A DNA stretch of 64,000 nucleotides from Mobula hypostoma (Eukaryota): the NCBI RefSeq assembly GCF_963921235.1, contig NC_086097.1:7688001-7752000 (forward strand). The letters are read 5' to 3'. This document shows positions 183 to 64,000 of the stretch, in pieces (position 1 is the stretch's first letter; each line of letters opens with the position of its first letter). Below the pieces are notes generated by a model that made no database searches, was not told the origin of the DNA, and worked only from the letters and a program-made list of their open reading frames with translations. The translations under genes and the position numbers were made by a program.

Positions 183-999
183 TTGTGGCGAGAAGTTACA
201 AAGTAGTAATGGATTCAGAAGAACTTTGAGAAGCTTTTCATAGGAAACACAGAAGTTAAAAATTCAGAGGTAAATATTGTGTCCCAAACAAAGCCTTGTC
301 TGCGGTCCAGAATCAAGAGAGAAAGATATCAACGTGTTCTCTGAAAATGAGTTGAATTTGCACTGTGTTATGTCTTGGGCAAAAAAAAAATCACAAACAT
401 GAGTCATTTGAATAAATTTCTAATGATTTCAGATGAAAGTGAGGGAGCATAGACTTCAGTTAAAGTTAAACATGTTTTTTTCTAAGATTTGATGTATCCT
501 GGGTAGTAGGAGAGAGAAATGGCTGACTACAGACCACATCAAATGATGGGAATGTTCTTGTCTGCTGATATCAAGGATTTTAAGTGAAGTGAGACTACAC
601 AGTCTGAAACTAGTTCCTGTACAGAATAGAGCTGCAGTAAAAAGGGGCTCATATTTCATCGCTAATTTGCACTAAGTTGACACAGGTGGAATTGCTGATG
701 CATTTCTACCCAGAGATAGGCATAACAAGGTGGAAAGGAAAACAGTGGTAGAAACATTCATCCAGACGAGGATTAATGGTCAACTGACAGAAAAAGGATT
801 AAGTAAAGCAATCCACCATGAGTTTGTTGAGGACAAATCATGTTGAACCAATTTGATAGAAATTTTATGTGGAGGTGCAGGAGAAGGACCTGCTTACTGC
901 TTATTTATTATTATTGTTCTATTTTTTTTTCTCAGCTCAAGCTGGTCCAGACTGAGATAAGGACATAGCCAAGCACACTCATTTCTCAATTGCTGGGAA

Positions 1000-2238: not shown

Positions 2239-5200
2239 AACATAGAACATAGAATAGTACAGCAAAATACAGGCCCTTCGGCCCACAATGTTATGCCGAC
2301 CCTCAAACCCTGCCTCCCATAAAACACCCCCACCATAAATTCCTCCATATACCTGTCAAGTAGTATCTTAAACTTCACGAGTGTATCTGCCTCCACCACT
2401 GACTCAGGCAGTGCATTCCACGCACAAACTACTCTCTGAGTAAAAAACCTTCCTCTAATAACCCCCTTGAACTTCCCACCCTTTACCTTAAAGCCATGTC
2501 CTCTTGTATTGAGCAGTGGTGCCCTGGGGACGAGGCACAGGCTATCCACTCTATCTATTCCTCTTAATATCTTCTATACCTCTATCATGTCTCCTCTCAT
2601 CCTCCTTCTCTCCAAACAGTAAAGCCCCAGCTTCCTTAATCTCTGATCATAATCCATACTCTCTAAAACAGGCAGCATCCTGGTAAATCTCCCCTGTACC
2701 CTTTCCAATGCTTCCACATCCTTCCAATAGTGAGGTGACCAGAACTGGACACAGTACTCCAAGTGTGGCCTAACCAGAATTTTATAGAGCTGCGTCATTA
2801 CATCGCGACTCTTAAACTCTATCCCTCGACTTATGAAAGCTAACACCCCATAAGAATTCTTAACTACCCTATCTACCTGTGAGGCAACTTTCAGGGATCT
2901 GTGGACATGTACCCCCAGATCCCTCTGCTCCTCCATACTACCAAGCATCCTGCCATTTACTTTGCACTCTGCCTTGGGGTTTGTCCTTCCAAAGTGTACC
3001 ACCTCACACTTCTCCGGGTTGAACTCCATCTGCCACTTCTCAGCCCACTTCTTCATCCTATCAATGTTTCTTTGCAATCTTCGTCAATCCTCTATACTAT
3101 CTACAACACCACCAACCTTTGTGTCATCTGCAAACTTGCCAACCCACCCTTCTACCCCGACATCCAGGTCGTTAATAAAAATCTCGAAAAGTAGAGGTCC
3201 CAGAACAGATCCTTGTGGGGCACCACTAGTTACAGCCCTCCAATCTGAATGTACTCCCTCCACCATGACCCTTTGCCTTCTGCAGGCAAGCTAATTCTGA
3301 ATCCACCTGGCCAAACTTCCCTGGATCCCATGCCTTCTGACTTTCTGAATAAGCCTACCATGTGGAACCTTGTCAAATGTCTTAGTAAAATCCACATAGA
3401 TCATATCCACTGCATTACCCTCATCTATATGCCTGGTCACCTCCTCAAAGGACTCTATCAGGCTTGTTAGACCATGATCTTCCCTTCACAAAGCCATGCT
3501 GACTGTCCCTGATCAGACCATGATACTCCAAATGCCCATAGGTCCTATCTCTAAGAATCTTTTCCAACTGCTTTCCCACCACAGACGTAAGGCTCACTGG
3601 TCTATAATTACCCGGACTATCCCTACAAACTTTTTTGAATAAGGGGACAGCATTCACCTCCCTCCAGTCCTCCGGTACCATTCCCGTGGACAATGAGGAC
3701 ACAAAGATCCTAGCCAGAGTCTCAGCAATCTCTTACCTCACCTCATGGAGCAGCCTGGGGAATATTCCGTCTGGTCCCGGGGACTTATCCATCCTAATGT
3801 ATTTTAACAACTCCAACACCTCCTCTCCCTTAATATTAACATGCTCCAGAACGTCAACCTCACTCATATTGTCCTCACCATCATCAAATTCCCTTTCATT
3901 GGTGAATACCGAAGAGAGTATTCATTGAAGACCTCGTTCACTTCCACAGCCTCCAGGCACATCTTCCCACCTTTATCGCTAATCAGTCCTACCTTGACTC
4001 CTGTCATCCTTTTGTTCTTCACATAATTGAAGAATGCCTTGGGGTTTTCCTTTACCCTACTCGCCAAGACCTTTGCATGCCCCTTTCTTGCTCTTCTCAG
4101 CCCCTTCTTAAGCTCCTTTCTTGCTACCATATATTCCTCAATAGACCTATCTGATCCTTGCTTCCTAAACCTCATGTATGCTGCCTTCTTCCACCTGACT
4201 AGATTTTCCACCTCACTTGTCACACCTGGTTCCTTCACCCTACCATTCTTTATCTTCCTCACCGGGACAAATTTATCCTTAACATCCTGCAAGAGATCCC
4301 TAAACATCAACCACATGTCCATAGTACATTTCCCTGCAAAAACATCATCCCAATTCACACCCGCAAGTTCTAGCCTTATAGCCTCATAATTTTCCCTTCC
4401 CCAATTAAAAATTTTCATGTCCTCTCTGATTCTATCCTTTTCCATGATAATGCTAAAGGCCAGGGAGAGGTGGTCATGTCCCCCAGACAGTCACCCACTG
4501 AGAGATCTGTGACCTGACCCAGTTCGTTACCTAATACTAGATCTAGTATGGCATTCCCCCTAGTCGGCCTGTCAACATGCTATGACAGGAATCCGTCCTG
4601 GACACACTTAACAAACTCTGCCCCATCTAAACCCTTGGAACTAATCAGGTGCCAATCAATATTAGGGAAGTTAAAGTCACCCATGATAACAACCGTTATT
4701 TTTCCACCTTTCCAAAATCTGCCTCCCAATCTGCTCCTCGGTATCTCTGCTGCTACAGGAGGCCTATATAATACTCCCAATAGAGTAATTGCTCCCTTCC
4801 TGTTCCTGACTGCCACCCATACTGACTCAAAAGAGGATCCTGCTACATTACCCACCCTTTCTGTAGCTGTAATAGTATCCTTGACCAGTAATGTCACCCC
4901 TCCTCCCCATTCCCCCACCACCCACTATCCCTTTTAAAGCACTGAAATCCAGGAATATTGAGAATCCATTCCTGCCCTAGTGCCAGCCAAGTCTCTGTAA
5001 TGGCCACTACATCATAATTCCATGTATGTATCCAAGTTCTCAGTTCATCACCTTTGTTCCTGATGCTTCTTGCATTGAAGTACACGCACTTTAGCCCTTC
5101 TACCTTACTACCTTTACATCCTTTATTTTGCTTCTCTTTCTTCAAAGCCTCTCTCTATGTTAGATCTGGCTTTACTCCATGCACTTCTTCTACTGCTCTA

Positions 5201-5688
5201 TTGCTCCGAGTCCCATCCCCCTTGCAAATTAGTTTAAACCTTCCCAAACCATGCTAGCAAACCTACCTGCAAGGATATTGCTCCCCGTCGAGTTCAGGTG
5301 CAACCCATCCAATCTGTACAGGTCCCACCTTCCCCAGAAGAGATCTCAATGATCCAAAGATCTAAAACCCTGCTCCCTGCACCAACTCCTCAGCCACGCA
5401 TTCAACTGCCATCTCCTCCAATTCTTACCATCACTGTCACATAGCACTGGCAGCAATCCTGAGAATGCCACCCTTGAGGTCCTGTTCTTCAGCCTTCTGC
5501 CTATTTCCTGAAACTCACACTTCAGGACCTCATCCCTCTTCCTGCCTATTCATTGGTCCCAACATGTATCACGACTTCTGGTTGCTTTCCTTATCGTACC
5601 AGGATGTCAGGCACCCGGTCAGAGACATCCCGGAGCCTGGCACCCGGGAGGCAACAAACCATGCAGGTGTCCTTCTTACGTTACGTCC
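2239..5688 (-). mobile_element. CR1 LINE (3' part of ORF1 esterase, decayed ORF2, tail) nested antisense inside another CR1
   Basis: ORFs contain [40 protein letters not shown] and RPHLEYC. The (CTATGTT)n tail is at 2239-2255 and TTAG is present at both junctions. Confidence 0.95.
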
Positions 5689-8279
5689 TTAGGAACAGGA
5701 AGGGGTGAATAACTCTACTGTGTTTTTTTTGTAGACCTCCCAATAGGGACATTGAGGAGTAGATAGGGATACAGATACTGGAAAGTTGTAATAATAACAG
5801 GGCTGTTGCGGTAGGAGATTTTAATTTCCCAAATATCGATTGGCATGTCCCTAGAGTGAGGAGTTTAGATGGGGTGGAGTCTGTTAGGTGTGTTCAGGGA
5901 GATTTCTTGACACAATATGTAGATAACCCTGCAAGAGGAGAGGCTGTACTTGATCTAGTATTGGGAAATGAACCTGGTCAGGTGTCAAATCTCTCAGTGG
6001 GAGAGCATTTTGGAGATAGTGATCATAATTCTATCTGCTTTTCCATAGCATTGGAACGAGATAGGAACTGACAAGTTAGGAAAGTGTTTAATTGGAGAAA
6101 GGGGAAATATGAGGCTATCAGTCAGGAACTTGATAGCATACATCGGGAACAGGTGCTCTCAGGAAAATGTACGGAAGAAATGTGGCAATTGTTCAGGGGA
6201 TATTTAAGTGAAGTTCTGCATAGGTACATTTCAATGAGCCAGGGAAAGGGTAGCAGGGTACAGGAACCGTGGTGTACAAAGTCTGTTGAAAATCTAGTCA
6301 AGAAGAAAAGAAAAGCTTACAAAAGGTTCAGAGAGCTAGGTAATGTTAGAGATTTAGAAGAATGTAAGGATAGTAAGAAGGAGCTAAAGAAAGAAATTAA
6401 GAGAGCCAGAAGGGGCCATGAGAAGGCCTTGGAAGGCAGGATTAAGGAAAACCCCAAGGCAGTCTACAAGTATATGAAGAGCAAGAGGATAAGATTTAAG
6501 AGAATAGGACCAATCAAGTGTGACAGTGGAAAAGTGCATATGGAACCAGAAGAGATAGCAGAGGTACATAATGAGTATTTTGCTTTAGTACTCACTACGG
6601 GAAAGGATCTTGGTGATTGTAAGGATGACTTACAGCGGACTGAAAAGCTTGAGCAAGTAGATATTAAGAAAGAGGATGTGCTGGTTTTTTTGGAAAGCAT
6701 CAAGTTGGAGAAGTCACTGGAACCAGATTGGATGGACCCCAGGCTATTGTGGGAGGAGAGGGAGGAGATTGCTGAGCCTCTGGCGATGATTTTTGCATCA
6801 TCAGTGGGCACGGGAGAGGTTCTGGAGGATTGGAGGGTTGCGGATGTTGTTCCTTTATTCAAGAAAGGGAGTAGAGATAGCCCAGGAATTAATAAACCAG
6901 TGAATTTTACTTCAGTGGTTGGTAAATTGATGGAGAAGATCCTGAGAGGCAGGATTTATGAACATTTAGAGAGGCATAATATGATTAGCAATAGGCAGCA
7001 TGGCTTTGTGAAAGGCAGGTTATGCCTTACGAGCCTGATTGAATTTTTTGAGGATGTGACTAAACACATTGATGAACGTAGAGTAGTAGATGTAGTGTAT
7101 ATGGATTTCAGCAAGGCATTTGACAAGGTACCCCATGCAAGGCTTATTGAGAAAGTAAGGAAGCATGGAATCCAAGCGGACATTGCTTTGCAGATCCAGA
7201 ACTGACTTGTCAAGAGAAGGCAAAGAATGGTTGCAGACAGGTCATATTCTGCATGGAGATTGGTCACCAGTGGTGTGCCTCAGGGATCTGTTCTTGGACC
7301 CCTACCCTTCAAGATTTTTATAAATGAACTGGATGAGGAAGTGAAGGGATGGGTTAGTAAATTTGCTGATGACACAAAGGTTGGAGGTCTTGTGGATAGT
7401 GTAGATGGGTGTCAGAGGTTACAGCAGGGCATCGGTAGGATGCAAAACTGGGCTGAGAAGTGGCAGATGGATTTCAACCCAGATAAGTGTGAGGTGGTTC
7501 ATTTTGGTAGGTCAAATATGATGGCAGACTATAGTATTAATGGTAAGACTCTTGGCAGCGTGGAGGATCAGAAGGATCTTGGGGTCCAATTCCATGGGAT
7601 ATTCAAAGTGTTGAGCAGCTTGACTCTGTGGTTAAGAAAGCATATGCTGCATGGTGTATTGGCCTTTATCAGTCAAGGGATTGAGTTTAGGAGCTGAGAG
7701 GCAATGTTGCAGCTATATAGGACCCTGGTCAGACCCCACTTGAAGTACTGTGCTTAGAACTGATTGCCTCACTACAGGAAGGATGTGGAAACCATAGAAA
7801 GGGTGCAGAGGAGTTTTACCAGGATCTTGCCTGGATTAGAGAGTGTGCCTTATAGAAATAGGTTGACTGATCTAGACCTTTTTTCCTTGGAGCAATGGAG
7901 GATGAGAGGTGACCTGATAGAGGTCTATAAGATGATGAGGGGCATTGATCGTTGGATAGTCAGAGGCTTTTTCCCAGGGCTGAAACATGAAGGGGCATAG
8001 TTCTAAGGTGTGTGGAAGTAGGTTAAGGTGGGATATCATGTGTAAGTTCTTCACACAGAGAGTGGTGGGTGCATGGAATACACTGCTAGCAGTGGTGGTA
8101 GAGGCGAATACAATAGGGTCTTTTAAGAGTCACTTAGATAGGTCCATGGAGCTTGGAATAATAGAGGGCTATGTGGTGGGGAAATTCTAGGCAGTTTCTA
8201 GAATAGTTTACATGGTCAGCACAACATTGTGGGTCAAAGGGCCTGTAATGTTCTGTAGATTTCTATGTTCTATGTTCTA
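5689..8279 (+). mobile_element. CR1 LINE, rest of ORF2 and 3' tail (right half of the interrupted element)
   Basis: LDLVLGN/SDHN endonuclease end; 373-aa ORF with QHGFVKGR and [18 protein letters not shown] and KFADDTK; CTATGTTCTATGTTCTA tail. Confidence 0.95.
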
Positions 8280-10889: not shown

Positions 10890-11162
10890 TGAGTTTAGGA
10901 CCAAAGGACACAGACTCAGTATAGAGGTATGTCCATTTAGAGCAGAGATAAGGAGGAATTTCTTTAGCCAGAGGATGGTGAGTCAGTGCAATTCATTGCC
11001 ACAAATGGCTGTGGAGGCCAAGTCATTGGGTATATTCACAATGAAGGTTGATAGATTCTTCATTCATGAAGACATCAGTGGTGACCGGGAGATGGCAGGA
11101 GCCATGATGGAGCAGACTCAATGGGTTGAATGGCCGAATTTGCTCTTATGCTTTATGGTCTT
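10890..11162 (+). mobile_element. CR1 3' fragment
   Basis: RRNFFSQRMVS..NSLP C-terminus plus the 3' UTR (GGAGCAGACTC.ATGGG...TATGGTCTT). Confidence 0.8.
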
Positions 11163-12569: not shown

Positions 12570-15500
12570 TAGATGTGTTCAGAGGTTGGGAGGGCCTTAC
12601 CCATGATGAACTGGGCTGAGGCCACTAGCTTTTGTAGAATTTTCTGTTTCCACACCAAGCTGTAATGTAGCCAGTCAATACACCCTCCACCACACATCTA
12701 TAGAAGTTTGATGTCATGCTGAATTTCCGCAGACTCCTAAGAAATGAGAGGCGCTGCCGTGCTTTCTTCATCATTACGTTTACATACTAAGTCCAGGACA
12801 GGTTTTCTGAAATAATAACACTCAGGAATTTAAAGTTACTGATCCTCCGATGAAGACTGGCTCATGGATTTCTGGTTTCCCTCTCCTGAAGTCTAAGATC
12901 AATTTTTGGTCTTGTTGACATTGGGTGAAAGGTTGTTGTTGTTATGACAGCACTCAGCCAAACTTTCAATTTCCCTCCTGTATGCTAATTCATCACCACC
13001 TTCGATACTTTGCAGGTATGCTTAAAAAGCAAGGCTCCAGAGATTAGGACAACTAAGGGGTGTTTGTGGGAACAGTGGTGTCAGCAGCAAACTTGAATAT
13101 GGTGTTGGAGCTATACCCAGCCTCACAGTCATAGATGTAAAGTGAGTGGAGCAGGGGTCTAACACACAGCCCCTGTGGTGCACCTGTGCTGATAGAGATC
13201 ATGGAGGAGATGTTTTTTCCAATCCAAATTGACCAGGGTCTACAAGTGAGGAAATCCAGAATCCAATTGCATAAGGGGATATTGAGGCCAAGGTCTTGGA
13301 GCTTATTGATTAGTTTTGAGGAGATGATGGTACTGAATGCTGAGCTGTAATCAATAAAGAACACCCTGATGTATGCATCTTTGCTGTCCAGATGTTCCAG
13401 GGTCGAGTGAAGAGCCAGTGAGATGGCACCTGCTGTGGACTTGTTGCTCTGGTAGGCAAATTGGAGAGGATCAAAGTTATCTTTCAGACAGGAACTAGTA
13501 TGTTCCATCACCGGCCTTGCAAAACACTTGATCATTGTGAATGTAAGCCTAACTGGGTGCTAGTTACTGAGGCAAGTCACCACACTCTTCTTGGGCACCA
13601 GTACAATTGAAACCTCCTTGAAGCAGGCAGGTACCACACATTGCCAAAGCGAGAGGTCAAAAATATCAATGAACACATCAGCACATGCCTTTGGCACACA
13701 GCCAGGTACCCCATCCAGTCCGGATGTTTCCTTGGATTCACACTCCTGATGGCAGCCCAAACATCAGCTTCAGATACTGAGCTCAAAGGCTCATCAGGAG
13801 ATGTGGGGGTTCGCCAGGTTTCCTCCATGTTCTGAATTTCAAAGCGAGCTTAGAAGGCATTGAGCTCACCTGGAAGTGAAGCCCTGCTGTCACCTAAGCT
13901 GCTTGACTTAACTTTGTAGAGGTTATTATATTCAAACCCTGCCACAGCTCTTGAGTATGCCTCATTGAATCCAGTTTGGTCTGGAATCTCCACTTTGCCC
14001 ATGAAATGGTTTTCTGGAGATCATACTTGCACCTCTTGTAGCATTCTTGATCTCCAGACTTGAATGCCTCTGATATTGCCCTCAGCGAATTTCAGGACTC
14101 CTGGTTCATCCAGGGTTTCTGATTGAAGAAGAGGCTAAACAATTTAGTGTGGACACACGCATTTACAGCTACTTTAATAAAGTCCATTAAAATCTTGGTG
14201 TCATCATTCAGATGAGTGCTTGAACACGGCCCAGTCCACTGACCCAAAGCAATTCTGTAATCGTTCCTCTGCCTCCAACAACCACCTCTTAGTTGTCCTA
14301 ATCTCTGGAGCTTTGCTTTTCAAGCTCTGTCTTTATGCAGGTAAGAGGACGACAGCCAAAGTGAAATCTGGGCAAGGAGTGGTAGGTATTCCTTATCACA
14401 GTGTAGCACTGGTCTAGTGGGTTGGCACCTGGTGCTACAGGTTACATGCTGCTGATAGTTGGGCAGGGTTTTTTCAAGCAGTTCTGACTATAATTTGAAA
14501 TGCATTGGGGTGGGCTGTTTCTTGTCTGCAGTGGACATCATGCAGTGTCACAAGTGTGTGTTTATAGTTTGCAGCTGGTGGTCCATAAGCTTTGGACAGG
14601 ATCACAGATGAGAACTCTTGAGGGAAATAAAATGGTCTATATTTGATCATTAGATGTTCCAGTTGGGGGAACACAAGTTCAACATAACTACTACATCAAA
14701 GCACCAACGAGAACTGACTATAAAGCACACGCCTCCTCCGTTTGCCTTACTACAGTCTGCATGGTCTACCATGGTCTGACTGACGCATCCAGTGTGTCGG
14801 CAGTTAACCAGCATCTGCAGAATCTCTTGTGTTTAGAACATGTCTGATATTGTGTTTGTAAATAAATACAGTTTAGATACAGAATCCTGAACTCAGAAAG
14901 AAATTGAACTTCAGACCCTTCTGCTGCTGGTTCAGTGATAAACGATCTGTGAATGTCTCATAGACATTTGATCTTGATATCTGTCTGAGTAGAGTAGGAA
15001 GAGACATCAGACTTAATGCCCTAGGACTTTAAAGATCCTCAGCTTGGATTTCTGCTTGTGACTGCTAGCAATTGGTTTGTGCCAAAACAAAAGGTTTATG
15101 GAGTGGGAACAAGCTGAGCTTGGCTCTGATGAACTGTGATTGAATATTCCACTGAGAACCAATACCCAAGTTCCCACATGAATAACTTTCAGTCAATTGG
15201 TCTCCCCTTTATCCCAACATGAGTGAACATTTTGATGGTAGTAGTATTTAAAGTTCAAGGTCACAACTGTGTGCTTATTGAGCACATCTATACAGACCGC
15301 TGCTACCGCACCTTCCATCCTTTGCCTGCAGTCTTTAGTTGATTCTTTTATGTTTCCTATATTTACTATGATTGCCTACAAGAAAATGAATCTCAGGGTT
15401 GTGTATGGTGACATGTATCGTATGTATTTTAATAAGTTTACTTTGAACTTTGAACTTTAATCATTGGAATTTCATCTAAGTTTTACCTAGGCAGAGTCTG

Positions 15501-18261: not shown

Positions 18262-19345
18262 AAGCTCGAAGCTCAAAGTAAAATTTATCATCAGAGTGCA
18301 TATGTAGATGTCACGACATACAGCCCTGACATTCTGTTTCTGTGAGCATATTTAACAAATCTACAGAACAGTAACTGTAAATTGTAAACATCAGGAACTG
18401 TAAACTGTAAATAAACTGAGCAAATGCAGATATAAATAAATAGCAATAAATAATGAGCATGAAATCACAATATAAAAGAGTTCTAAATGAGTGTAATTAT
18501 CCCCTTTTGTTCAAGAGCCTGATGGTTGAGGGGTAGTAACTGTTCTTGAACCTCAGGCACCTGTACTACCTATCCGATGGCAGCAATGAGAAAAGAGCAT
18601 GGCCTCAGTGGTGAGGATCTTTGATGATGGATGCTGCTTTCCTGCAACAGCATTTCATGTCAGTGTGCTCAGTGGTTGGGTGGGCTTTATCCCTGATGTA
18701 CTGGGCTGAATCAACCACCTTTCGTAGTAATTTCCATTCAAAGGCATTGGTGTTCCCATACCGGGCTGTAATGCAGCCTGTCAGCACACTTTCCACCATT
18801 CATCTATAGAAGTTTTCGAAAGTTTTCAATGACATGTTGAGCCTCTGCAGGCTCCTGAGAAAGCAGAGGTGCTGTCGTGCTTTCTTCACAATAATATTTA
18901 TATGATGGGTCCAGGTCATGTCGTCTGACATAGTGAAACCCAGGAATTTAAAGTTACTGACCCTCTCCACCTCAGATCCTCCAATGATTACTGGCTCATG
19001 GACCTCTGGTTTCCCTCTCCTGAAGTCTAATTTGAGTGAGAGGTTGTTGTTATGACACCACTCAGCCAAGTTTTCAATCTCCCTCCTGTATGCTGATTCA
19101 TCACCCCCTTTGATACGACCCACAACGGTGGTGTCATTAGCAAACTTGCATATGGTGTTGGAGCTGTACTTAGCCACACAGTCACAGGTGTAAAGCGAGT
19201 AGAGCAGGGGGCTAAGTACACATCCGTGCTGTGCTCCTGTGCTGGTGGAGGTTGCGGAGGAAATGTTTTTGCTAAATCAAATTAACTGGGTCTACAAGTG
19301 AGGAAATCCAGGATCCAGTTGCACAGGGGGTATTGAGGCCCAGGT
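18262..19345 (-). mobile_element. 5'-truncated Rex1/Babar LINE
   Basis: KFANDTTVVG...ESAYRREIENL...FKFLG...ESVLTGCIT...KAASIIKDPHH; 3' UTR matches 11490-12200. Confidence 0.9.
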
Positions 19346-22096: not shown

Positions 22097-22930
22097 CAAC
22101 ACACAAGGGTACTGGAGCAACTCAGCAGGTCAGTCAGCATCTAAGGAGAAAAATCAACATTTCAAGTTGAGGCCCTTTAGTAGGACATGAAAGCAAGAGA
22201 GGTGAGAGCCCTTATAAAAAAAATGTGGCAGAGCAAATAGAATGTGGAGTTCTGAAGTATAAGAATTGGCGGGGGGGAGGGAAGGAACTCATTGAAACCT
22301 TTCAAATATTGGAAATACACTGTACTACACAGAATGGAAGTGGAGAGAATGTTTCCTGTAGTGGGTGAGTCTAGGACCAGAGAGCACAGCCTCAGAATAG
22401 GTGGATGTCCATTTAAAACAAAGATGAGGAGGAATGCCTTTAACCAGAGGGTGGTGAATCTGTGAAAGTCATTGCCACAGACAAACATGGAGGCCAGGTG
22501 TTTGGGTGTATTTAAAACAGAGGTTGATAGTTCTTGATTCATGAGACTGCCAAAAGCTATGTAGAGAGTGCAGAAGAATTAGGTTGAGAGGGATAATAAT
22601 TCAGCCTTGATGGAATGGTGGAGCAGACTCGATGGGCTGAATGCCCTAATTCTGCTCCCATCTTATGGTCTTGAGAGTTGGTGTATGATAGGTGGATCCA
22701 GGTGAGGAGGGTGGAGTGAGAGGAACATAAGAACTTGGAAAGAGACAGGTGGAAGTGTCAAAGGGATGAAGAAGATGGAATCTGATCGCAGAGGTCAGTG
22801 GACAATGCAATGAAGGGAAGGGGATGAGGAGGTGAATAGGTAGGAGAAATATGCGGGAGATGTGCAGATAAGTTGGGCAGGGGAGGGGAAAGAGATGGGA
22901 TGATGGGGGTCAGAGGGATAAGGGGAAAAC
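22097..22930 (-). mobile_element. Penelope-like pLTR relic interrupted by a plus-strand CR1 3' fragment (about 22285-22672)
   Basis: GGAGCAACTCAGCAGGTCAG..CAGCATC motif shared with 32070, 38430 and 44260; purine-rich pLTR body resumes after the CR1 tail. Confidence 0.65.
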
Positions 22931-23754: not shown

Positions 23755-25262
23755 AGTAGTAGTGGCATACGTTAGTCCCGTGAGACCATGGATCTGCGCC
23801 TGGAAAGTCTTGCTTCAGTCTGTGTTAGAGCAGCGTCTGTTGTGGCTGTGGAGGCCCACACGGGAGTGACAGTCTCGGCTACCGCGACTGCACTCGAAGG
23901 CGCTGTCCTCCAGTGTTGTCTTGGTGCTGTTTCTCCGGCGAGTGCGCTTTTCTTCAGCAGCAAGCCTCAGCTTCTCTCCTCCTCTTTTTAGACCTCTGCA
24001 TAGTTCCAGCCTCCAGCGAGAGCGATTGCTTGCGATGTACTCCCACCTCTCGACGTTCATTTTCAGTGACTTCATGGCTCTCTTGCAAACGTCTTTGAAA
24101 CGAAGATGGGACTGCCCTTGTGCTCTCTTGCCGGAGGCCAGTTCCCTGTACAGCAGGTCTTTCAGGATCCTCCCGTCTGACGTGTGGTGTATGTGGCCCA
24201 GACGGCGCTTTTGGAGCAGGGTGAAGAGGCTGGGCATCTGGGCGTGGGCCAGGTCCTCATTGTTGGTGACTCAGTTAATCCACTTGATGTCCAGGATGTG
24301 TCTCAGGCTGCGAAGGTGGAAGACGTTGAGACGCCGCTCTTGTCTGGAGTAGATGCTCCAGGTCTCGCTGCCGTAAAGCAGTATGCTGAGGATGCAGGCC
24401 CTGTAGACTGCAACATTGGTGTGCGTTGTCAGCTTTCTGTTCTCCCAGACCCTCTTTGTCAGCCTGGCAAATGTTGAGGCTGCTCGTCCGATACATCTGT
24501 TGATCTCGGGGTCTAGGGAGAGACTGTCCATGATGGTGGAGACAAGGTATGTAAACTCGTGGACTACCTCCAGCTCGTAGTTGTTGATGGTGATGGCAGC
24601 AGGGTGCTCAACGCCTCGGCCCAACACGTTGGTTTTCCTCAGGCTGATGGTCAAGCTGAAGTCCTGGCAGGCTCTTGAGAAGCTGTCCATGAGGCGTTGC
24701 AGTTGCTCTTCAGAGTGTGTTGCCAGTGCCGCGTCGTCTGCAAACAACATGTCCCTGATGAGTACTTCACAAACCTTGGTTTTTGCCCTTAGCTGGGACA
24801 GACGGAACAGCCTCCCGTCCGATCTGGTGTGGAGGTAGACACCATCAGTTGATGTTCCAAAGCCATGCTTCAGCATGACTGCGAAGAAGATGCCGAACAG
24901 GGTGGGGGCAAGCACACAGCCCTGCTTCACACTGCTGCGGATGTTGAAGGCCTCCGAAGAAGAGCCGTCAAACTGAACGACGTCCTTCATGTCTGTGTGC
25001 AATGACTGAACTCTCCTGAGGAGCCTTGGGGGACAACCAATCCTGGTGAGGATTTTGAACAGGCCGTCTCTGCTCACGAGGTCAAAGGCCTTCGTGAGGT
25101 CAATGAAAGCTACGTAGAGTGGTTGCCTTTGCTCTCTGCATTTCTCTTGTAGCTGTCGAAGGGAGAAGATCATGTCGATTGTGGAGCATTCTGACCTGAA
25201 ACTGCACTGAGACTTGGTATATTTCCTTTCGGCTATTTTCTGCAGTCTGTTCAGGACCACGT
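23755..25262 (-). mobile_element. RTE-clade LINE, 5'-truncated RT with C-terminal Cys/His motif
   Basis: RSECSTIDMIFSLRQLQEKCREQ, FIDLTKAFD, VKQGCVLAPTLF, LFADDAAL, LLYGSETW; C-terminus CSRGSRDCHSRVGLHSH; (CTA)n tail. Confidence 0.95.
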
Positions 25263-25638
25263 AGGACCATGTAGGAGTATAGTATTGAACATTCATGATC
25301 CTATTGCATAGCAGAGTCGATGTGAGGAGCAGTCTGAGGTTGGAAATCATATCTGTGTATGTCCATGTGCAGCTTTGAAGCTACAGTTTGAAAAAAAAAT
25401 GGTTGGGAAGGACAGAGTCCCAATTCAAGGGAATAGAGTTCCCAAGGTATTACTGAAGGAAGGAAGGAAGGAAGGAACATGGACATAGTGGGTTTGGACA
25501 AGAGAGCAAGAATTATATAATTGTGAAATGTTATGTTTAGAAACAAACACATGTAATTTGGGAATGGGATTAAGAATGCAGCTAAAAGTGTTATGATGAA
25601 AGATAAACCGTCAGCTTCATTTTAATAGTAGCTTAAAG

Positions 25639-36765: not shown

Positions 36766-36798
36766 TGTGTGTGTGTGTGTGTGTGTGTCTGTGTCTGT

Positions 36799-36828
<30 letters not shown>
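36766..36828. repeat. (GT)n microsatellite, forming the tail of the adjacent RTE-type element
   Basis: Directly visible, interrupted by GTCT units. Confidence 0.95.
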
Positions 36829-36829
<1 letters not shown>

Positions 36830-37430
36830 GCCTCTGTCGGTCGTGGTCGACCATGGGTACTGCGCCTCTGGTAGTCACTGGGGAGTGGCCTCCTCCAGGG
36901 TACAAGCCAGGGCAGAGTTGATATGGAGATCCGTCTGTTGCCCATGCAGTGGGACCCCCCTCTCCATGCTGATGACAGGTCCAAAGGAATGACGGATGTC
37001 GATACAGTTTGGTGCCAGCAGCCTCGCAAGAGTTGCCGTGTCGGAGCTGGGTACAGCAGTCAGCCGCCTTCGGGAATCCGACTCCGGATTTTTCCTTGGG
37101 GTTTACTCTCAAAGCCTTTCCCGAGAGCAGGTATAGCCGCATGGCAGCGGAGGTTTGAAATCGGAGTTTTCCCTCTCCTAGATGAGCTACCATCCGTGGT
37201 TTGACAAGCCCCATCTGCCTGAAGCAACTGGTTTTAAGGCGCCAGTGTCCCCCCTTTGCCCCTTCTCCTGTCAGTGAGAACAGCCCTGCCGGGCATAAGA
37301 CCTATGCCACACGTGAAGGCCAGGAGTTGGACTTGGTTGTCAGAGGCTGTTTGAGACGCACGCCATGAAGAGCATTCGTTTAGCAGTGGGAGCTCGTCCC
37401 CACTACCATCCTTCAGCTATGCCAGCTTTG
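36829..37430 (-). mobile_element. Non-autonomous RTE-type element (structured 5' part plus RTE 3' end)
   Basis: Its terminus GACCATGG..TGCGCCT resembles the RTE terminus at 23765-23802; GC-rich and non-coding; (CA)n tail. Confidence 0.7.
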
Positions 37431-38510: not shown

Positions 38511-39164
38511 AGCAATCCGCAAGTGCTGCCACACTTCCAGTGCCAACATAGCATGCTCACAACTCACTAATCCTAGCTCTTCATCTTTGAAATGTGGAAG
38601 GAAAGCAGAGCACCCAGACGAAATCCAAGTGGTAACGAGGAGAACGTACAAACTCTGAACCCCAATCTTAACACAGCTCTACAGTACCATCCATTCAAAC
38701 ACTCTCACTTGAAGTCTGAACCACCACATTTCTATACTCCCATTGTGGTTTTACTTGTTAGTTCAGGTCTTATAAAGCTTATCCCTCTCTTAAAATTTCT
38801 CAGATTATTTTTCCCTCCCTTTATTTATCATTTGGTATCTGATCTAACAGTGGATTGATCAATTCTACTCTCCACTCATCCATGAGCTTTTAATTCCATT
38901 TATTTACTTTTTATTTATTTGGAGATACAATACAAAACAGGCCTTCCAACCCAATGAGCTGCACCACCCAGCATCCCACTGATTTAACCCAAGCCTAATC
39001 ATGGGACAATTTACAATGTGCAATTAACCTACTAACTGGTACTGGAAAAAAAATGGCAGAGGCATTTTAAGTTTAAAGGAAACCATAACAGCTCCTGTAT
39101 TGTCTTCCAAACACAGAACATAAAGCGTGATAGAAAAAACTTCATATAATTTTGTCAGTGCATT

Positions 39165-39696
39165 AAAGGTCCAGGCCTGACTGTGGTCTTTTGTCGGGCG
39201 CCGGACGCTCGGAGAGATTCGGCAGGGGGCCGTGGTTGAGTGGTCAGCGACTTGGGCCGGATCCCCTGCTGGACTGGAGAGAAGGGTGTGAGGATACCCA
39301 GCAAGACAGAAAACAAACAAGACCTGACAAAGGGCGGATGAGCTCCTTGTGAGCCAATGGCCATCTTCCGTGGAAGAGGTTAAAGCCTCACCACGTATCT
39401 ACGAATCGTATGCTATGCACCTAGTTAGAGGAGACATGATGAACTTGGGCGCTGCACCGTGTGCCTGGACCTGCCCAAGGCCTCCGCCTAAGGGAAGGCC
39501 GAACTCGAAAAAGCGGCCACGGCTGGAGGCTGACACGGCCTCGGGCTCGAGTTCGGCAGGGGCGGCGGTGGGGTGCCAAGGTGGCCAACGAGAACAAACT
39601 GGAGGAGAGGCTGTACTCGGTGCTGTCACAAGATCGAAAAAGATGGAGGTGCATAGCCACCAACCCCAGATTCGGGACGGCACCCACTGACTGACT
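39165..39696 (+). mobile_element. RTE-type non-autonomous element interrupted by a gene fragment
   Basis: Removing 39449-39626 restores GDMMNLAQDRKRWRCIATNP, an RTE-like C-terminus (AQDR..WR), followed by an (ACTG)n tail. The 5' boundary is approximate. Confidence 0.6.
39451..39626 (+). pseudogene. ZFTRAF1: Circularly permuted fragment of ZFTRAF1/CYHR1 N-terminal coding sequence
   Basis: Encodes [11 protein letters not shown], then PNSKKRPRLE...[12 protein letters not shown] (one frameshift, one stop). Vertebrate ZFTRAF1 reads PPKKRLR...[25 protein letters not shown] (from recall). Confidence 0.85.
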
Positions 39697-40459
39697 AAAG
39701 GATATGGCGAGAAGGCAAGTATATGGAGTTGAGTGGAATCTGGGATCAACCGGGATGGAATGGTGGAGCAGACTGGATGGGCTGAAAAGCCTTATTCTGC
39801 TCCTCTGTCTTATGGTCTGATGGTAATAGCATCATGCTAATCACTATGCTAATCACGGAGCAGCAGTGAACCATCTGATTGGCCTATCACAGTTCTCTTT
39901 GGGATCTAGTTGACTTGATCAGCATTTCTGATCTGGCTATTGCTCACGACTGCACTTAATAAAAAAGGACTTTGCTAGTGTGGTGCCATAATTTCACAAT
40001 CCTTCAACTGGATGGTTTAAATCTGAGGTTCTTCCTTCTCTATGATAATACCAACTCATTTTTGCAATTCGCCACACTTGAATGTGAAGGCCAAAGTTAT
40101 CTACAGTAGACACAGTAGGATAATGTATTACAATGTTGTGGTTCTGTGTGTTTATTGCCTTTATTGTATATACAGGCTAACAAACATGTTACACAATAGA
40201 ATTTACTTCCATTTTTTTAGTTACCTCCTCACGGCTTGTTTCCTTTTACAGAACAATAAATCAGGAAGTTGTCAATGCTCTGATGTTTCATTTTTCTGGT
40301 AACATCTTAGAATCAGGATCAGAATCAAGTTTAATGTCACTGGCATATGTCATGACATTGGTTGTTTTTGCAGCAGTAGCAGATTGCAATACATCATAAT
40401 AAAAAAAACTATAATAAGAAATATAAATATTAAAAAAAGTAAGAAGATGATGGATACTG

Positions 40460-45639: not shown

Positions 45640-48600
45640 TAAGTGTGAGGTGGAACCCAGATAAGTGTGAGATGGTTCATTTTGGTAGGTCAGATATAAT
45701 GGGAGAATAGTACGACCTTTGGCAATGTGGAGGATCAGAGGGATCTTGGGGTCTGTGTCCATAGGACACTCAAACATGCCGTATAGGTTGACAGTGTGGT
45801 TAAGAAGGCATGCAGTGCATTGGTCTTCATCAACCATGGGATTGAGTTCAAGAGCTGAGAGGTAATGTTACAGCTGTATAGGACTCCGGGCAGACCCCAC
45901 TTGGAGTACTGTGCTCAGATCTGGTCACCTCACAACAGGAAGGATGTGGAAACTATAGAAAGAGTGCAGAGATTTACAAGGATGTGGTTTGGATTGGGGA
46001 GCATGCCTGACAAGAATAGAAACATAGAAAACCTACAGCACAATACAGGTTCTTCGGCCCACAGAGGTGTGCCAAACATGCCCCTGCCTTAGAAATTACT
46101 AAGCTTACCTACAGCTCTCTATTTTATTAAGCTCCATGTACCTATCTAAAAGTCTCTGAAAAGACCCAATCGTATCCACCTCCACCACCGTTGCTGGCAG
46201 CCCATTCCATGCACTCACCAACTCTCTGAGTAAAAAACTTACCCATGACATCTTCTCTGTACCTACTCCTCAGTACCTTAAACCTCTGTCCTCTTGTGGC
46301 AACCACTTCAGCCCTGGGAAAAAGCCTCTGACTATCCACACGATCAATGCCTCTCATCATCTTATGCACCTCTATCAGGTCACCTCTCATCCTCCGTCGC
46401 TCCAAGGAGAAAAGGTCAAGTTCACTCAATCTATTCTCATAAGGCATGCTCCCCAATCCAGGCAACAACCTTGTAAATCTCCTCTGCACCCTTTCTATGA
46501 CTTTCACATCCTTTCTGTAGTGATGCGACCAGAACTGAGCACAGTACTCCAAGTGTGGTCTGACCAGGGTCCTATATAGCTGCAACATTACCTCTTGGCT
46601 CCCAAATTCAATTCCATGATTGATGAAGGCCAATACACCATACACCTTCTTAAACGCAGAGTCAACCTGCGCAGCTGCTTTGAGTATCTTATGGACTCAG
46701 ACCCCAAGATCCCTCTGATCCTCCACACTGCCAAGAGTCTTACTATTAATACTATATTCTTCCATCATATTTGACCTACCAAAATGAACCACTTCACACT
46801 TATCTGGGTTGAAGTCCATCTGCCACTTCTCAGCCCAGTTTTGCATCCTATCAATGTTCCGCTGTAACTTCTGACAGTCCTCTACACTATTCACAACACC
46901 CCCAACCTTTGTGTCATCAGCAAACTTACTAACCCATCCCTCCACTTCCTCATCCAGGTCATTTATAAAAATCACAAAGAGTAAGGGTCCCAGAACAGGT
47001 CCATGAGGCACACCACTGGTGACTGACCTCTATGTAGAATATGACCCATCTACAACCACTCTTTGCCTTCTGTGGGCAAACCAGTTCTGGATTCACAAAG
47101 CAATGTCCCCTTGGATCCCATGCCTCCTTACTTTCTCAATAAGCCTTGCATGGGGTACCTTATCAAATGCCTTGCTGAAATCCGTATACACTACATCTAC
47201 TGCTCTTCCTTCATCAATGTGTTTAGTCACATCCTCAAAAAATTCAATCATGATTGTAAGGCACGACCTGCCCTTGACAAAAGCACACTGACTACTCTTA
47301 ATCATTTTATACCTCTCCAAATGTTCATAAATCCTTCCTCTCAGGATCTTCTCCAACAACTTACCAACCACTGAGGTAAGACTCACTGGTCTATAATTTC
47401 CTGGGCTATCTCTACTCCCTTTCTTAAATAAAGGAACAACATCCGCTACCCTCCAATCCTCCGGAACCTCTCTCGTCCCCATTGATGATGCAATGATCAT
47501 TGCCAGAGGCTCAGCAATCTCCTTCCTCACCTCCCACAGTAGCCTGGGGTACATCTCATCCGGTCCCGGTGACTTATCCAACTTGATGCTTTCCAAAAGC
47601 TCTTTCTTAATATCTACATGCTCAAGCTTTTCAGTCTGCTGCAGGTCATCACTACAATCACCAAGATCCTTTTCCATAGTGAATACTGAAGTAAAGTATT
47701 CATTAAGTACCTCTGTTATTTCCTCCGGTTCCATACATACTTTCCCACTGTCGCACTTGATAGGTCCTATTCTTTCACATCTTATCCTCTTGTTCTTCAC
47801 ATACTTGTAGAATGCCTTGGGGTTTTCCTTAATCTTACCTGCCAAGGCCTTCTCATGGCTCCTTCTGGCTCTCCTAATTTCTTTCTTAAAGCTCCTTCCT
47901 ATTAGCCTTATAATCTTCTAGATCTCTAGCATTACCTAGCTCTCTGAACCTATTGTAAGCTTTTCTTTTCTTCTTGACTAGATTTACCTTTGTACACCAC
48001 GGTTCCTGTACCCTACCATAACTTCCCTGTCTCATTGGAAGGTACCCATGCAGAACTCCACACAAATATCCCCTGAATATTTGCCACACTTCTTCCGTAC
48101 TTTTCCCTGAGAACATCTGTTTCCAATTTAAGTCTCCAATTTCCTGTCTGATAGCCTCATAATTCCCATTACTCCAATTAAACGCTTTTCTAACTTCTCT
48201 GTTCCTATCTCTCTCCAATGCTATTGTATAGGAGATAGAATTATGATCACTATCTCCAATATGCTCTCCCACTGAGAGATCTGACACCTGACCAGGTTCA
48301 TTTCCCAATACCAAATCAAGTACAGACTCTCCTCTTGTAGGCTTATCTACATATTGTGTCAAGAAACCTTCCTGAACACACCTCGCAAACTCCACCCCAT
48401 CTAAACCCCTTGCTCTAGGGAGATACCAATCGATATTTGGGAAATTAAAATCTCCCATCACGACAACTCTGGCATTATTACACCTTTCCAGAATCTGTTT
48501 CCCTATCTGCTCCTCAATATCCCTGTTACTATTGGGCGGCGTATAAGAAACACCCAGTAAAATTATTGACCCTTTCCTGTTCCCAACCTCCACCCACAGA

Positions 48601-50619
48601 GACTCCGTAGACAATCCCTCCATGGCGTCCACCTTTTCTGCAGCCGTGACACTATCTCTGATCAACAGTGCCACGCCCCCACCTCTTGTGCCTCCCTCCC
48701 TGTCCTTTCTGAAACATCTAAAACCCGGCACTTGAAGTAACCATTCCTGTCCCTGAGCCATCCAAGTCTCTATAATGGCCACCACATCATAGCTCCAAGT
48801 ACTGATCCACGCTCTAAGCTCATCCGCTTTGTTCACAACACTCCTTGCGTTAAAATAGACACATCTCAAAGGTTCGGTCTGAGCCCATCCCTTCTCTATC
48901 ACCTGCCTATCCTCCCTCTCGCACTGTCTACAAGCTTTCTCTATTTGTGAGCCAACCCCGCCTTCCCCAGTCTCTTCAGTTTGGTTCTCACCCCCACAAC
49001 AATTCTAGTTTAAACTCTCCCCAGTACCTTAGCCAACCTCCCCACCAGGATATTGGTCCCCCTGGGATTCAAGTGCAACCCGTCCTTTTTGTACAGGTCA
49101 CACCTGCCCCAAAAGAGGTCCCAATGATCCAGAAATCTGAATCCCTGCCCCCTGCTCCAATAACTCAGCCCTTCATTTATCCTTCACCTCATTCTATTCC
49201 TATTCTCACTGACGCGAGGCACAGGCAGTAATCCCGAGATTACTACCTTTGAGGTCCTGTTTCTCAACTTCCTTCCTAACTCCCTGTAGTCTTTTTTCAG
49301 GACCTCTTCCCTTTTCCTACCTATGTCATTGGTACCAATATGTACCACGACCTCTGGCTGTTCTCCCTCCCACTGCAGGATATCTTGGATGTGATCTGAA
49401 ACATCCTGGACCCTGGCACCTGGGAGGCAAGCTACCACCCGAGTTTCTTTCCTGCATCCACAGAATCGCCTGTCTGACCCCCTAACTATAGAGTCCCCTA
49501 TCACTGCTGCCATCCTCTTCCTTTCCCTACCCTTCTGAGCCGCAGAACCAGGCTCTGTGCCAGAGGCATGGCCACTGTTGCTTCCCCCAGGTAGGCTGTC
49601 TCGCCCAACAGTACTCAAACAGGAGTACTTATTGTCAAGGGGCACAGCCACCGGGGTACTCTCTAGTACCTGACTTTTCCCCCTCCCCCTCCTGACTGTG
49701 ACCCACTTGTCTGTCTCCCATTGCCCCAGTGTGACCACCTGCCTACAACTCCTTTCTATCAACTCCTCACTCTCCCTGACCAAGCAAAGGTCATCGAGTT
49801 GCATCTCCAGTTCCATAACTCAGTCCCTTAGGACCTGCAGCTCGACGCACCTGGTGCAGATATGGCCGTCCGGGAGGCTGGGAGACTCCAGGACCTCCAA
49901 CATCTGACACCGAGCACAGAAAACTAGCCTCACACACCTACTTCCTCCTTTCTGCAAATAACACAGTTAAACCTACCTTGCCTTGTCCTGTTACCGCCTA
50001 AGCCCGCTGAGCCAAAGCCCTATCACTCAGCTGCCTGCTCCAAATGCTGCACACTGGATATGGCGGCCTTCTTTTTAAACCTTTCGCGCTCTGCTGCTGA
50101 CGTCATGCGCCTGTGCATTCTCACCTCTCTTTTACCCCGAGTAGTAAAGAACTCCATTTGCTCCAAAAAATCAGCTGTTCACTCGCAGCCTTCTTATAGG
50201 TTGAGTGAACTTGGCCTTTTCTTCTTGGAGCAACAGAGGATGAGAGGTGACCTAATAGAGGTGTTTAAGATGATGACAAGTATTGATTTTGTGGATAGTC
50301 AGAGGCTTTTTCCCAGGGCTGAAATGGCTAGTGCGACAGGGCACGGTTTTAAAGTGCTTGGAAGTAGGTACAGAGGAAATGTCAGGGGGATGTTTTTTAC
50401 ACAGAGAGTGGTGAGTGTGTGGAATGGGCTGCCAGCGACTGTGGTGGAGGCAGATAAAATAGGGTCTTTTAAGAGATTCCTGGAAGGTACAAGGTGCTTA
50501 GAAAAATAGAGGGTTATGGGTAACCCTAGGGATTTCTAAGGTAAGGACACGTTCGGCACAGCATTGTGGGCCGAAGGGCCTGTATTGTGCAGTGCGTTTT
50601 CTATGTTTCTATGTTTCTA
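45640..50619 (+). mobile_element. CR1 3' fragment split by a near-full-length antisense CR1 (host parts 45640-46019 and 50196-50619)
   Basis: RPHLEYCAQIWSPH..GSMP before the insertion; RLSELGLFFLEQQRMRGDL and a (CTATGTTT)n tail after it. Confidence 0.9.
46020..50195 (-). mobile_element. Near-full-length CR1 LINE: 5' UTR, ORF1 (zinc finger/leucine zipper plus SGNH esterase), ORF2 (EN-RT), all with lesions
   Basis: ORF1: CARC..CTRC, LEMQLDDL, VIGDSIVRG, VHIGTNDIG. ORF2: 338-aa EN ORF, NYRPVSLTS, DFSKAFD, KFADDTK, RPHLEYC. ATAG at both junctions. Confidence 0.95.
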
Positions 50620-59649: not shown

Positions 59650-59946
59650 AGGCTCCATGGTAGGGTACCGGTTAGCACAACGCTATTAAAGCTCGGGGCA
59701 TTGGAGTTCTGACATCAACTCCCGCGTAGTCTGTAAGGAGTTTGTACCTTCTCCCCGTAACCACATGGCTTTCCGCCAGGCTCTCCGGTTTCCTCCCATA
59801 GTCCAAAGACATACTAGTTAATAGGTTAATTGGTGGTTTTAGATGGTCTTGTGATTAGGCTAGAGTTAAATAGGTGGGTTGTTGGGTGGTGTATCTCTTT
59901 GTGCTGGAAGTGCCTGTTCTGTGCTGTCTCTCTAAATAAATAAATA
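59650..59946 (+). mobile_element. V-SINE (HE1-like)
   Basis: tRNA-like head, CTCCGGTTTCCTCCCATAGTCCAAAGAC V-domain and (TAAA)n tail. Confidence 0.85.
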
Positions 59947-63200: not shown

Positions 63201-63593
63201 CCAGGAAAAAAAGGGTCATCATGCGAGGAACGCTTGATGGCTCTGGGTCTGTACTCGCTGGAATTCAGAAGGATGGGGTGGGGATCTCATTGAAACCTTT
63301 CAAATATTGAAAGGTCTAGACAGAGTAGATGTGGAAAAAGATGTGCCCCATGGTGGGAGAGTCGAGGATAATATGTGTAGCCTCAGGATAACCTCATTCA
63401 GCTCTGGAGGCCAGGTCGTTGGCTGTATTTAAAGCGGAGATTGATAGGTTCTTGATTGGACATGGCATCAAAGGTTATGGGGACTGTAACTGTGGTTGAG
63501 GAGGGAAAAAAAAGATCAGCCATAATTGAATGGTGGAGCAGACTCAATGGGCCAGATAGCCTAAATCTGCTCCTCTGTCTTATGGTCTTATGG
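60220..63593 (+). mobile_element. CR1 LINE, ORF2 EN-RT decayed, with tail
   Basis: LYLNASSIRNK, YDVVAITE, YRPP, GDF, SDHN, YLDFQKTFD, KFVDDTK, RSHLEYC; 7-bp TSD TCCACAG. Confidence 0.95.
60701..61183 (+). mobile_element. Young 5'-truncated CR1 nested in the CR1 endonuclease region
   Basis: Uninterrupted 125-aa ORF2 C-terminus, (TTTCTATG)n tail and AAAAGG duplicated at 60695-60700 and 61184-61189. Confidence 0.95.
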
Positions 63594-64000
63594 TCCACAG
63601 TTTTGCTACTCTCTGGATAAAATAATTCCTCCTTATTTTTGTTCTACAAAGTCACCTCTCAATTTTGATTCTGTGCCCTCTCATTCTAGATAATCCCACC
63701 ATAGGAACCACCCTCTCCACATCCACCCTATCTAGTCCCTTCAACATTCTGTAAGCTTCAAAGCGATCCCACCACAAAAATTATATTTTTGAGATAAATA
63801 AAAAGGGCTGAGTATCTGCCAGAAGTCCACATACTTGCAATTCAGAAGATGCAAATTCCTTACCACAACTTCAATGGTTAAGATTGAAACAAGTCACAGG
63901 AGCTACTGTTCCATGGTGTCATCCTTCGAAAGATGGAGCTAGAAACATCTTGAAAACATAATGTAATATTATGGAATGATGCTGTGCTAGTCACAAATAG

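Follow-up and report, generated by a model that had tools for sequence, protein, structure and literature searches.

A base-exact rotated exon fragment inside a retrotransposon-like unit of Mobula hypostoma and its possible origin from a microDNA-sized DNA circle

How did a short piece of coding exon come to lie in repeat-rich DNA of Mobula hypostoma with its downstream part placed ahead of its upstream part? The piece is an insert of 176 bases at 39451-39626 of a 64,000-nt window (contig NC_086097.1, positions 7,688,001 to 7,752,000; the window is this whole analysed stretch, and features are on its + strand unless stated otherwise). Its GC content is 0.665 and it contains 14 CpGs, with a CpG observed/expected ratio of 0.74 compared with 0.30 for the window. 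Neither a second copy of the insert nor its parent exon was found by blastn within the 64-kb window. An earlier note on this DNA had described the two ends of the insert and claimed that joining them restores two consecutive cysteines. The reading frames confirm this. The frame from 39453 encodes an 11-residue peptide with a stop directly after it, and the frame from 39452 ends with a 17-residue stretch that leaves a single base, T, at 39626. When the end of the insert is joined to its start, this T and the initial GC form a Cys codon, and the next codon is the Cys of CTVC.

The insert can be divided into two pieces. Piece B (39451-39486), placed first, is the downstream part of the parent exon from the second Cys codon onward. 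Piece A follows in two portions: a GC- and CpG-rich upstream part (39487-39595), which is a candidate for the same parent exon, and an end portion (39596-39626) that encodes a 10-residue peptide plus the first base of the Cys codon closing onto 39451. Read from 39451, the frame of the insert runs ...KGRPNSKKRPRLEADTASGSSSAG..., with ...SKKRPRLEAD... in the upstream part of piece A. Piece B runs into piece A at 39486-39487, which is the internal, putatively circle-closing junction, and homology to the relative's exon described below stops there.

To see the order of the pieces in a source, we used a degenerate DNA pattern for the terminal 10 residues of piece A alone, with piece B outside the pattern. 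It retrieved one locus (L001) in metagenome_contigs and none in genome_contigs or viral_contigs. Window bases 39596-39626 are identical to L001 804-834 (+) at 28/31 positions, and the adjoining L001 bases 835-868 (+) match window 39451-39484 at 31/34. The match of piece B, which the pattern did not include, is an independent confirmation, and the A-then-B order of the parent, taken as background in the earlier note, is now seen in a relative's exon. The boundary 834|835 of L001 corresponds to 39626|39451 of the window; the outer ends of the insert adjoin in the source with nothing lost, overlapping or doubled, and the bases just outside the insert (39450 and 39627) differ from the source continuation. 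Since the outer ends are adjacent in L001, the insert is a base-exact AB→BA rotation, i.e. the exact circular permutation claimed earlier. As judged by this sequence comparison with the relative's exon, which supports 31 + 36 of the 176 bases, the rotation is genuine and accurate to the single base.

L001 591-880 appears to be the first coding exon of an animal gene with a clean GT donor, that is, host or other eukaryotic DNA in a metagenome assembly. From an ATG at 591 the frame is open for 96 codons to an exon end at 878, giving an exon of ~290 nt. The end is marked by CAG at 876-878 followed by GT at 879-880 (CAG|GTAAAC), a good donor site, and it is believable because the frame beyond it holds no further Cys or His. 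The middle 109 bases of the insert (39487-39595) gave no L001 alignment beyond an 8-residue low-complexity match (E 2); a tentative link to the parent gene comes from base composition and from a KKR motif in about the same position. The GSSSAG common to piece A and the N-terminus of L001 (BLASTP E 2) was taken as low complexity and not as an additional rearrangement. A likeness between the insert and 39214-39235 was also rejected, as it scored 25 where shuffles reached 24 and other parts of the window up to 32.

Piece A contains a single frame change, near a G run at ~39570. Removing one G from the four-G run reunites the frame from 39451 with that of the terminal 10 residues, and the change could stem from mutation, from polymerase slippage or from an error in sequencing. 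Piece A also contains a hairpin at 39498-39557 (+), with perfect 11-bp arms (39498-39508 and 39547-39557) and an inner stem; such a near-palindrome is unusual for coding sequence. As RNA, 39488-39626 folds at −59.1 kcal/mol (z −2.9), a stability equalled by 1 of 200 shuffles.

What kind of event returns a piece of exon rotated exactly by one turn? We favour a circle, because a single cut in a circle yields adjacent outer ends automatically; by our own estimate, for an exon of ~290 nt, two independent breakpoints would coincide in this way about once in a few hundred cases. Our preferred reading, held at a probability of roughly 40%, is that the insert was a microDNA-sized double-stranded DNA circle of the first coding exon, opened once and end-joined into a break. 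In this model, a 176-bp circle would form from the first coding exon, rich in GC and CpG, of a gene that we take to be ZFTRAF1/CYHR1, closing by the joining of a point 8–9 nt before the exon end to a point farther upstream in the exon. One break would open it inside the first Cys codon of the RING finger, and end joining would ligate the opened circle into a break in a young retrotransposon-like copy or its progenitor, with perhaps ~12–18 nt of the host lost at the break, going by the spacing of motifs in the host unit. We infer the circular intermediate, its DNA nature and the origin of the middle 109 nt from the same exon.

Several properties of the insert are consistent with this model. At 176 bp, with a CpG observed/expected ratio of 0.74 and a match to a first coding exon in L001, it resembles microDNA, described as circles of 100–400 bp that are enriched in 5′ UTRs, exons and CpG islands and whose formation is MMEJ-dependent (PMC9527254). 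No spliced intermediate is needed, because the internal junction falls short of the exon end. At the outer junctions, at most 1 nt can be assigned to both sides, which fits blunt end joining. Germline insertions with the same AB→BA arrangement have been ascribed to eccDNA in humans, where they are reported as 82/327 source-resolved insertions >50 bp (10.64898/2026.09.03.749254), and others are described among human segmental duplications (PMC7188851).

The position of the internal junction bears directly on whether the circle was instead a spliced RNA. The earlier note had put this junction at about the exon end, which did not hold: piece B ends at L001 869 (or 870), 8–9 nt before the CAG|GT boundary at 878|879, assuming that the exon end is conserved between species. 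Under the circRNA reading, a canonical back-spliced exonic circRNA of the gene presumed to be ZFTRAF1 was reverse-transcribed and inserted, leaving a circRNA-derived pseudogene. Such pseudogenes likewise have a non-colinear block order and no poly(A) beside the insert (PMC4897178), and a GT does follow the last base of piece B in L001 (870-871), so a cryptic, though weak, donor is conceivable. However, there is no ATG in piece A; given that the L001 exon is open from its ATG at 591, piece A probably starts mid-exon, where no acceptor is expected. Of the two donors that the earlier note had offered, microDNA/eccDNA is still viable, while the back-spliced circRNA is disfavoured by the off-splice junction and the missing ATG, and we consider it the least credible of the origins weighed here.

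The surroundings of the insert, not seen in the earlier note, add a further possibility. The insert is embedded in a young, CpG-rich unit that resembles a retrotransposon and is likely bounded by a target-site duplication, and this context brings in a reverse-transcriptase route that the note had not considered. The unit is a 526-bp block (39170-39695), whose flanks have CpG observed/expected ratios of 0.60–0.72 against 0.31 in the repeat that follows and 0.30 in the window. The left flank (39170-39450; 281 bases) ends with the codons ...LVRGDMMNLG and has a ratio of 0.72 (39190-39450). The right flank (39627-39695; ratio 0.60) encodes (S)QDRKRWRCIATNPRFGTAPTD and closes with a TGA stop at 39692-39694 and terminal ACTG repeats. 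The motif D[RK]xxW[RK] occurs in two places in the six frames of the window, at 39632 and 32998. The flank motifs V..DM..LG and DR..WR look like the C-terminal ORF2 tail of some non-LTR retrotransposons, and by these motifs the host unit would be the 3′ end of such an element. Going by the motif spacing, the unit perhaps lacks some 12–18 bases at the insertion point.

Database searches with the host unit were blank. Its flanks had no other copy in the window, no Pfam family and 0 matches among 1.84 billion representatives, and the best Atlas score for the left-flank ORF was 0.86, below the useful range. A unit as strongly truncated as this would not contain reverse-transcriptase or endonuclease domains in any case. 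Rfam returned two matches on 38900-39448, both far under their gathering scores, so no captured small RNA was detected there. SINE-like repeat copies in reverse orientation lie at 38900-39041 and 59650-59944, and the first of these breaks off abruptly at 39041. Within the unit, a perfect 11-nt inverted repeat (39412-39422 and 39647-39657) has one arm in each flank, so that the insert lies within the 224 nt that separate them. It may be an RNA or DNA stem of the host element near the entry point, or may be due to chance (~0.1 expected in 951 bases by our own estimate). The sequence CTGACTG is present at 39177-39183, 7 nt inside the 5′ edge of the unit, and again within the 3′ ACTG repeats (39687-39695); the 5′ occurrence could be a remnant of a second copy of the tail, or chance.

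The unit itself appears to interrupt an older, CpG-poor repeat. Putative target-site duplications, TAAAGG, are found at its left edge (39164-39169) and on its right (39696-39701), where the older repeat resumes with these same bases. The 3′ part of this repeat (39696-39827; CpG observed/expected 0.31) was recognised by nhmmer with an E value of 2.1e-34 over profile positions 237-368. The family has at least five other copies in the window, and blastn matched 60126-60000, 23089-22973, 63514-63594, 34266-34189, 22601-22671 and 11104-11161. On the other side of the unit, the 29 bases at 39143-39171 weakly resembled the older repeat just 5′ of the break, with 6.5 bits against a matrix of that sequence, a score matched by 51 of ~128,000 window positions; this corresponds to ~0.016 for a 40-nt target, the target having been chosen after seeing the data. 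Neither nhmmer nor pairwise alignment, with a score of 33 where shuffles reached 40, found the upstream half of the repeat. With moderate confidence, we conclude that a young, 5′-truncated retroelement bearing the rotated exon piece entered an old repeat and duplicated 6 bp of its target.

If the unit is a retroelement, did its own reverse transcriptase make the rotation? According to this alternative, the rotation arose during target-primed reverse transcription: the enzyme would have copied the 3′ end of the element (39695 back to 39627), then piece A, then piece B, and then the template of the left flank. The foreign template would be either a small circle, not back-spliced, copied for exactly one turn until the enzyme came back to where it had begun, or two adjacent fragments of one cleaved RNA; copying two such fragments in succession would give the exact closure without a circle. 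The features of the 526-bp unit, i.e. its ACTG repeats, the stop codon in its tail and the apparent 6-bp duplication inside the older repeat, agree with this route. In addition, the insert and the unit are equally CpG-rich (0.60–0.74 versus 0.30), and the insert is sense-oriented relative to the frame of the unit.

These last two features also count against our preferred DNA circle, because capture of double-stranded DNA gives the orientation of the host frame only half of the time, and because young, CpG-rich sequence of this kind (0.60–0.72 versus 0.30) would rarely be hit by a random break. An event tied to the unit's own retrotransposition would explain why the insert lies in a young unit. 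The required behaviour also has parallels: R2-type enzymes jump end-to-end between templates. LINE chimeric retrocopies formed by one or two template jumps have been described (PMC2104539; 10.1101/2025.02.02.635956), and reverse transcription of structured linear RNAs can yield non-colinear junctions (Dong et al., PMC4897178), piece A being predicted to fold strongly.

The reverse-transcriptase route nevertheless meets several difficulties. Known chimeras carry the foreign RNA as their 5′ part. If the motif reading is right, the same element lies nearly in register on both sides of the insert, so the enzyme would have left and re-entered one template. Strand-displacing enzymes on circles tend toward more than one turn. 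Moreover, the retrotransposon identity of the flanks came without support from the tools used, and the upstream half of the split repeat was matched only weakly (~0.016 for the 40-nt target), with no upstream match by nhmmer. On balance, a rotation made by the reverse transcriptase is a possible but less probable origin than the end-joined DNA circle. More doubtful is the specific form in which the enzyme, while inserting, copied exactly one turn of a small non-back-spliced circle (RNA or single-stranded DNA) from the CpG-island exon.

The location of the source bears both on the DNA circle and on replication. In the human AB→BA set, 80/82 insertions are reported as intrachromosomal, with 78/80 of those <10 Mb from their source (10.64898/2026.09.03.749254). 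This also argues against the DNA circle in our case, because the human cases are mostly near their source, whereas the parent lies outside the 64-kb window. The same data, as given in that preprint, show source-near insertions mostly in the same orientation, and local replicative copying fits them as well as circles do. Template switching of the FoSTeS/MMBIR type at a broken fork could have taken up B from the parent locus and A after it, without any free circle. However, serial switches have no reason to stop A exactly one base before the start of B, and here too the parent is outside the window. We therefore regard replication-based switching as decidedly improbable.

A plainer possibility is that no special intermediate was involved, the parent already being arranged B-A or tandemly duplicated, or the arrangement being an assembly chimera. 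The frame change in piece A falls in a G run, a common site of long-read error. Against a tandem-repeat parent, a linear piece of it could comprise exactly one unit only if its two cuts fell at the same phase. Against a rearranged parent, the A-then-B protein order is kept in L001 and is required for a RING finger that starts with CxxC. Against a chimera, the junctions are clean and lie within unique sequence. Together these points make an origin without a special intermediate highly improbable.

The parent gene is presumably ZFTRAF1/CYHR1 (both names are in use), a zinc-finger gene with a RING finger. Homologous-protein searches with the two frames as they stand, and with a peptide read through the frame change at the G run, gave no match to a named parent protein at E values up to 10, and the representative search with 39488-39691 gave 0 matches among 1.84 billion representatives. 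The PDB had 0 matches to the translation of the L001 exon, Pfam returned only a chance-level TRASH match (0.04), and a text search of the literature for the insert peptide found no paper. These blank protein searches say little, as the queries held only 10–45 real residues.

In the wider window, Pfam was run on 185/189 stop-to-stop ORFs of ≥75 aa (four ORFs were left out, and short exons would escape such a scan). Only retrotransposon domains and one sub-threshold LRRNT match were obtained, and no host gene was detected among those 185 ORFs. The window is full of LINE remains, with RVT_1, endonuclease, ALKBH8_N and GDSL/OSK domains. A fairly complete non-LTR retrotransposon occupies 46145-49819 on the − strand, and includes a GDSL-lipase/OSK-like ORF (49187-49819, −), an endonuclease (47889-49004, −) and a reverse transcriptase (46700-47917, −). 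Other LINE remains are at 2577-7694, 13056-13559, 18803-19276 and 24274-25380, with matches to ALKBH8_N-type tails in several. A CA/TG dinucleotide microsatellite at 36780-36860, visible in ORFs as runs of C-V or H-T residues, lies beside the GC-rich stretch 36800-37400.

How does this insert compare with known rotated or chimeric insertions? The closest counterparts are the AB→BA germline insertions ascribed to eccDNA (Zhang et al. 2026 preprint, 10.64898/2026.09.03.749254; Takahashi & Innan 2020, PMC7188851), which likewise have swapped blocks in the same orientation and a single turn, and whose block order is read in those reports as a circle that was cut once and reintegrated. As described there, the published cases are defined against the source interval in the same genome, whereas our insert was compared with a relative's exon. 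The cases in segmental duplications are >1 kb (PMC7188851) as opposed to 176 bp here. The human set, as outlined in the preprint, left out insertions in repeats, while this insert lies inside a young repeat copy in a repeat-rich window. In size, GC and CpG richness and origin from a 5′ coding exon, the insert matches microDNA (Shibata et al. 2012, as summarised in PMC9527254). However, microDNA is defined by observed circles and by short direct repeats at their junctions, and the insert is known from its sequence alone. In the literature surveyed, apart from the AB→BA sets, no report described so small a circle going back into a genome.

The RNA-based counterparts fit in part. Circular-RNA-derived pseudogenes (Dong et al. 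2016, PMC4897178) resemble the insert in having non-colinear gene pieces and no poly(A) tail, but they join annotated exon ends, and the junction here is 8–9 nt inside the exon with a partner that is apparently mid-exon. LINE chimeric retrocopies, such as the tripartite chimeras of Gogvadze et al. (2007; PMC2104539), are described as fused RNA pieces in the same orientation, as here, with a retrotransposon 3′ end at the 3′ side and a flanking target-site duplication, an arrangement that the unit 39170-39695 putatively resembles. Unlike in those chimeras, the foreign piece is internal and rotated, and 281 bases of the unit (39170-39450) lie 5′ of it; the two flanks may belong to a single element. 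The one-turn AB→BA pattern is therefore a known signature, of which this example is unusually small and clean. It stands apart by its small size, its base-exact closure when compared with the exon of a relative, its off-splice junction and its young retroelement-like setting.

Circles of this size are abundant in cells, and their return to the germline is documented mostly for larger pieces and only recently, in human insertion polymorphisms. A base-exact, one-turn copy of a conserved exon, 176 bp long, would give a clean case from nature near the lower limit of size, apparently in a non-mammalian vertebrate. The location of the insert inside a young retrotransposon-like unit poses the concrete question of whether such pieces enter by end joining, as in our preferred reading, or by reverse transcription. 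For annotation, it is a warning that the start of a RING finger in repeat-rich DNA can be a rotated fragment rather than an exon. If reverse-transcriptase copying of a circle were true, the LINE machinery would provide host-gene circles of microDNA size with a way into a vertebrate germline.
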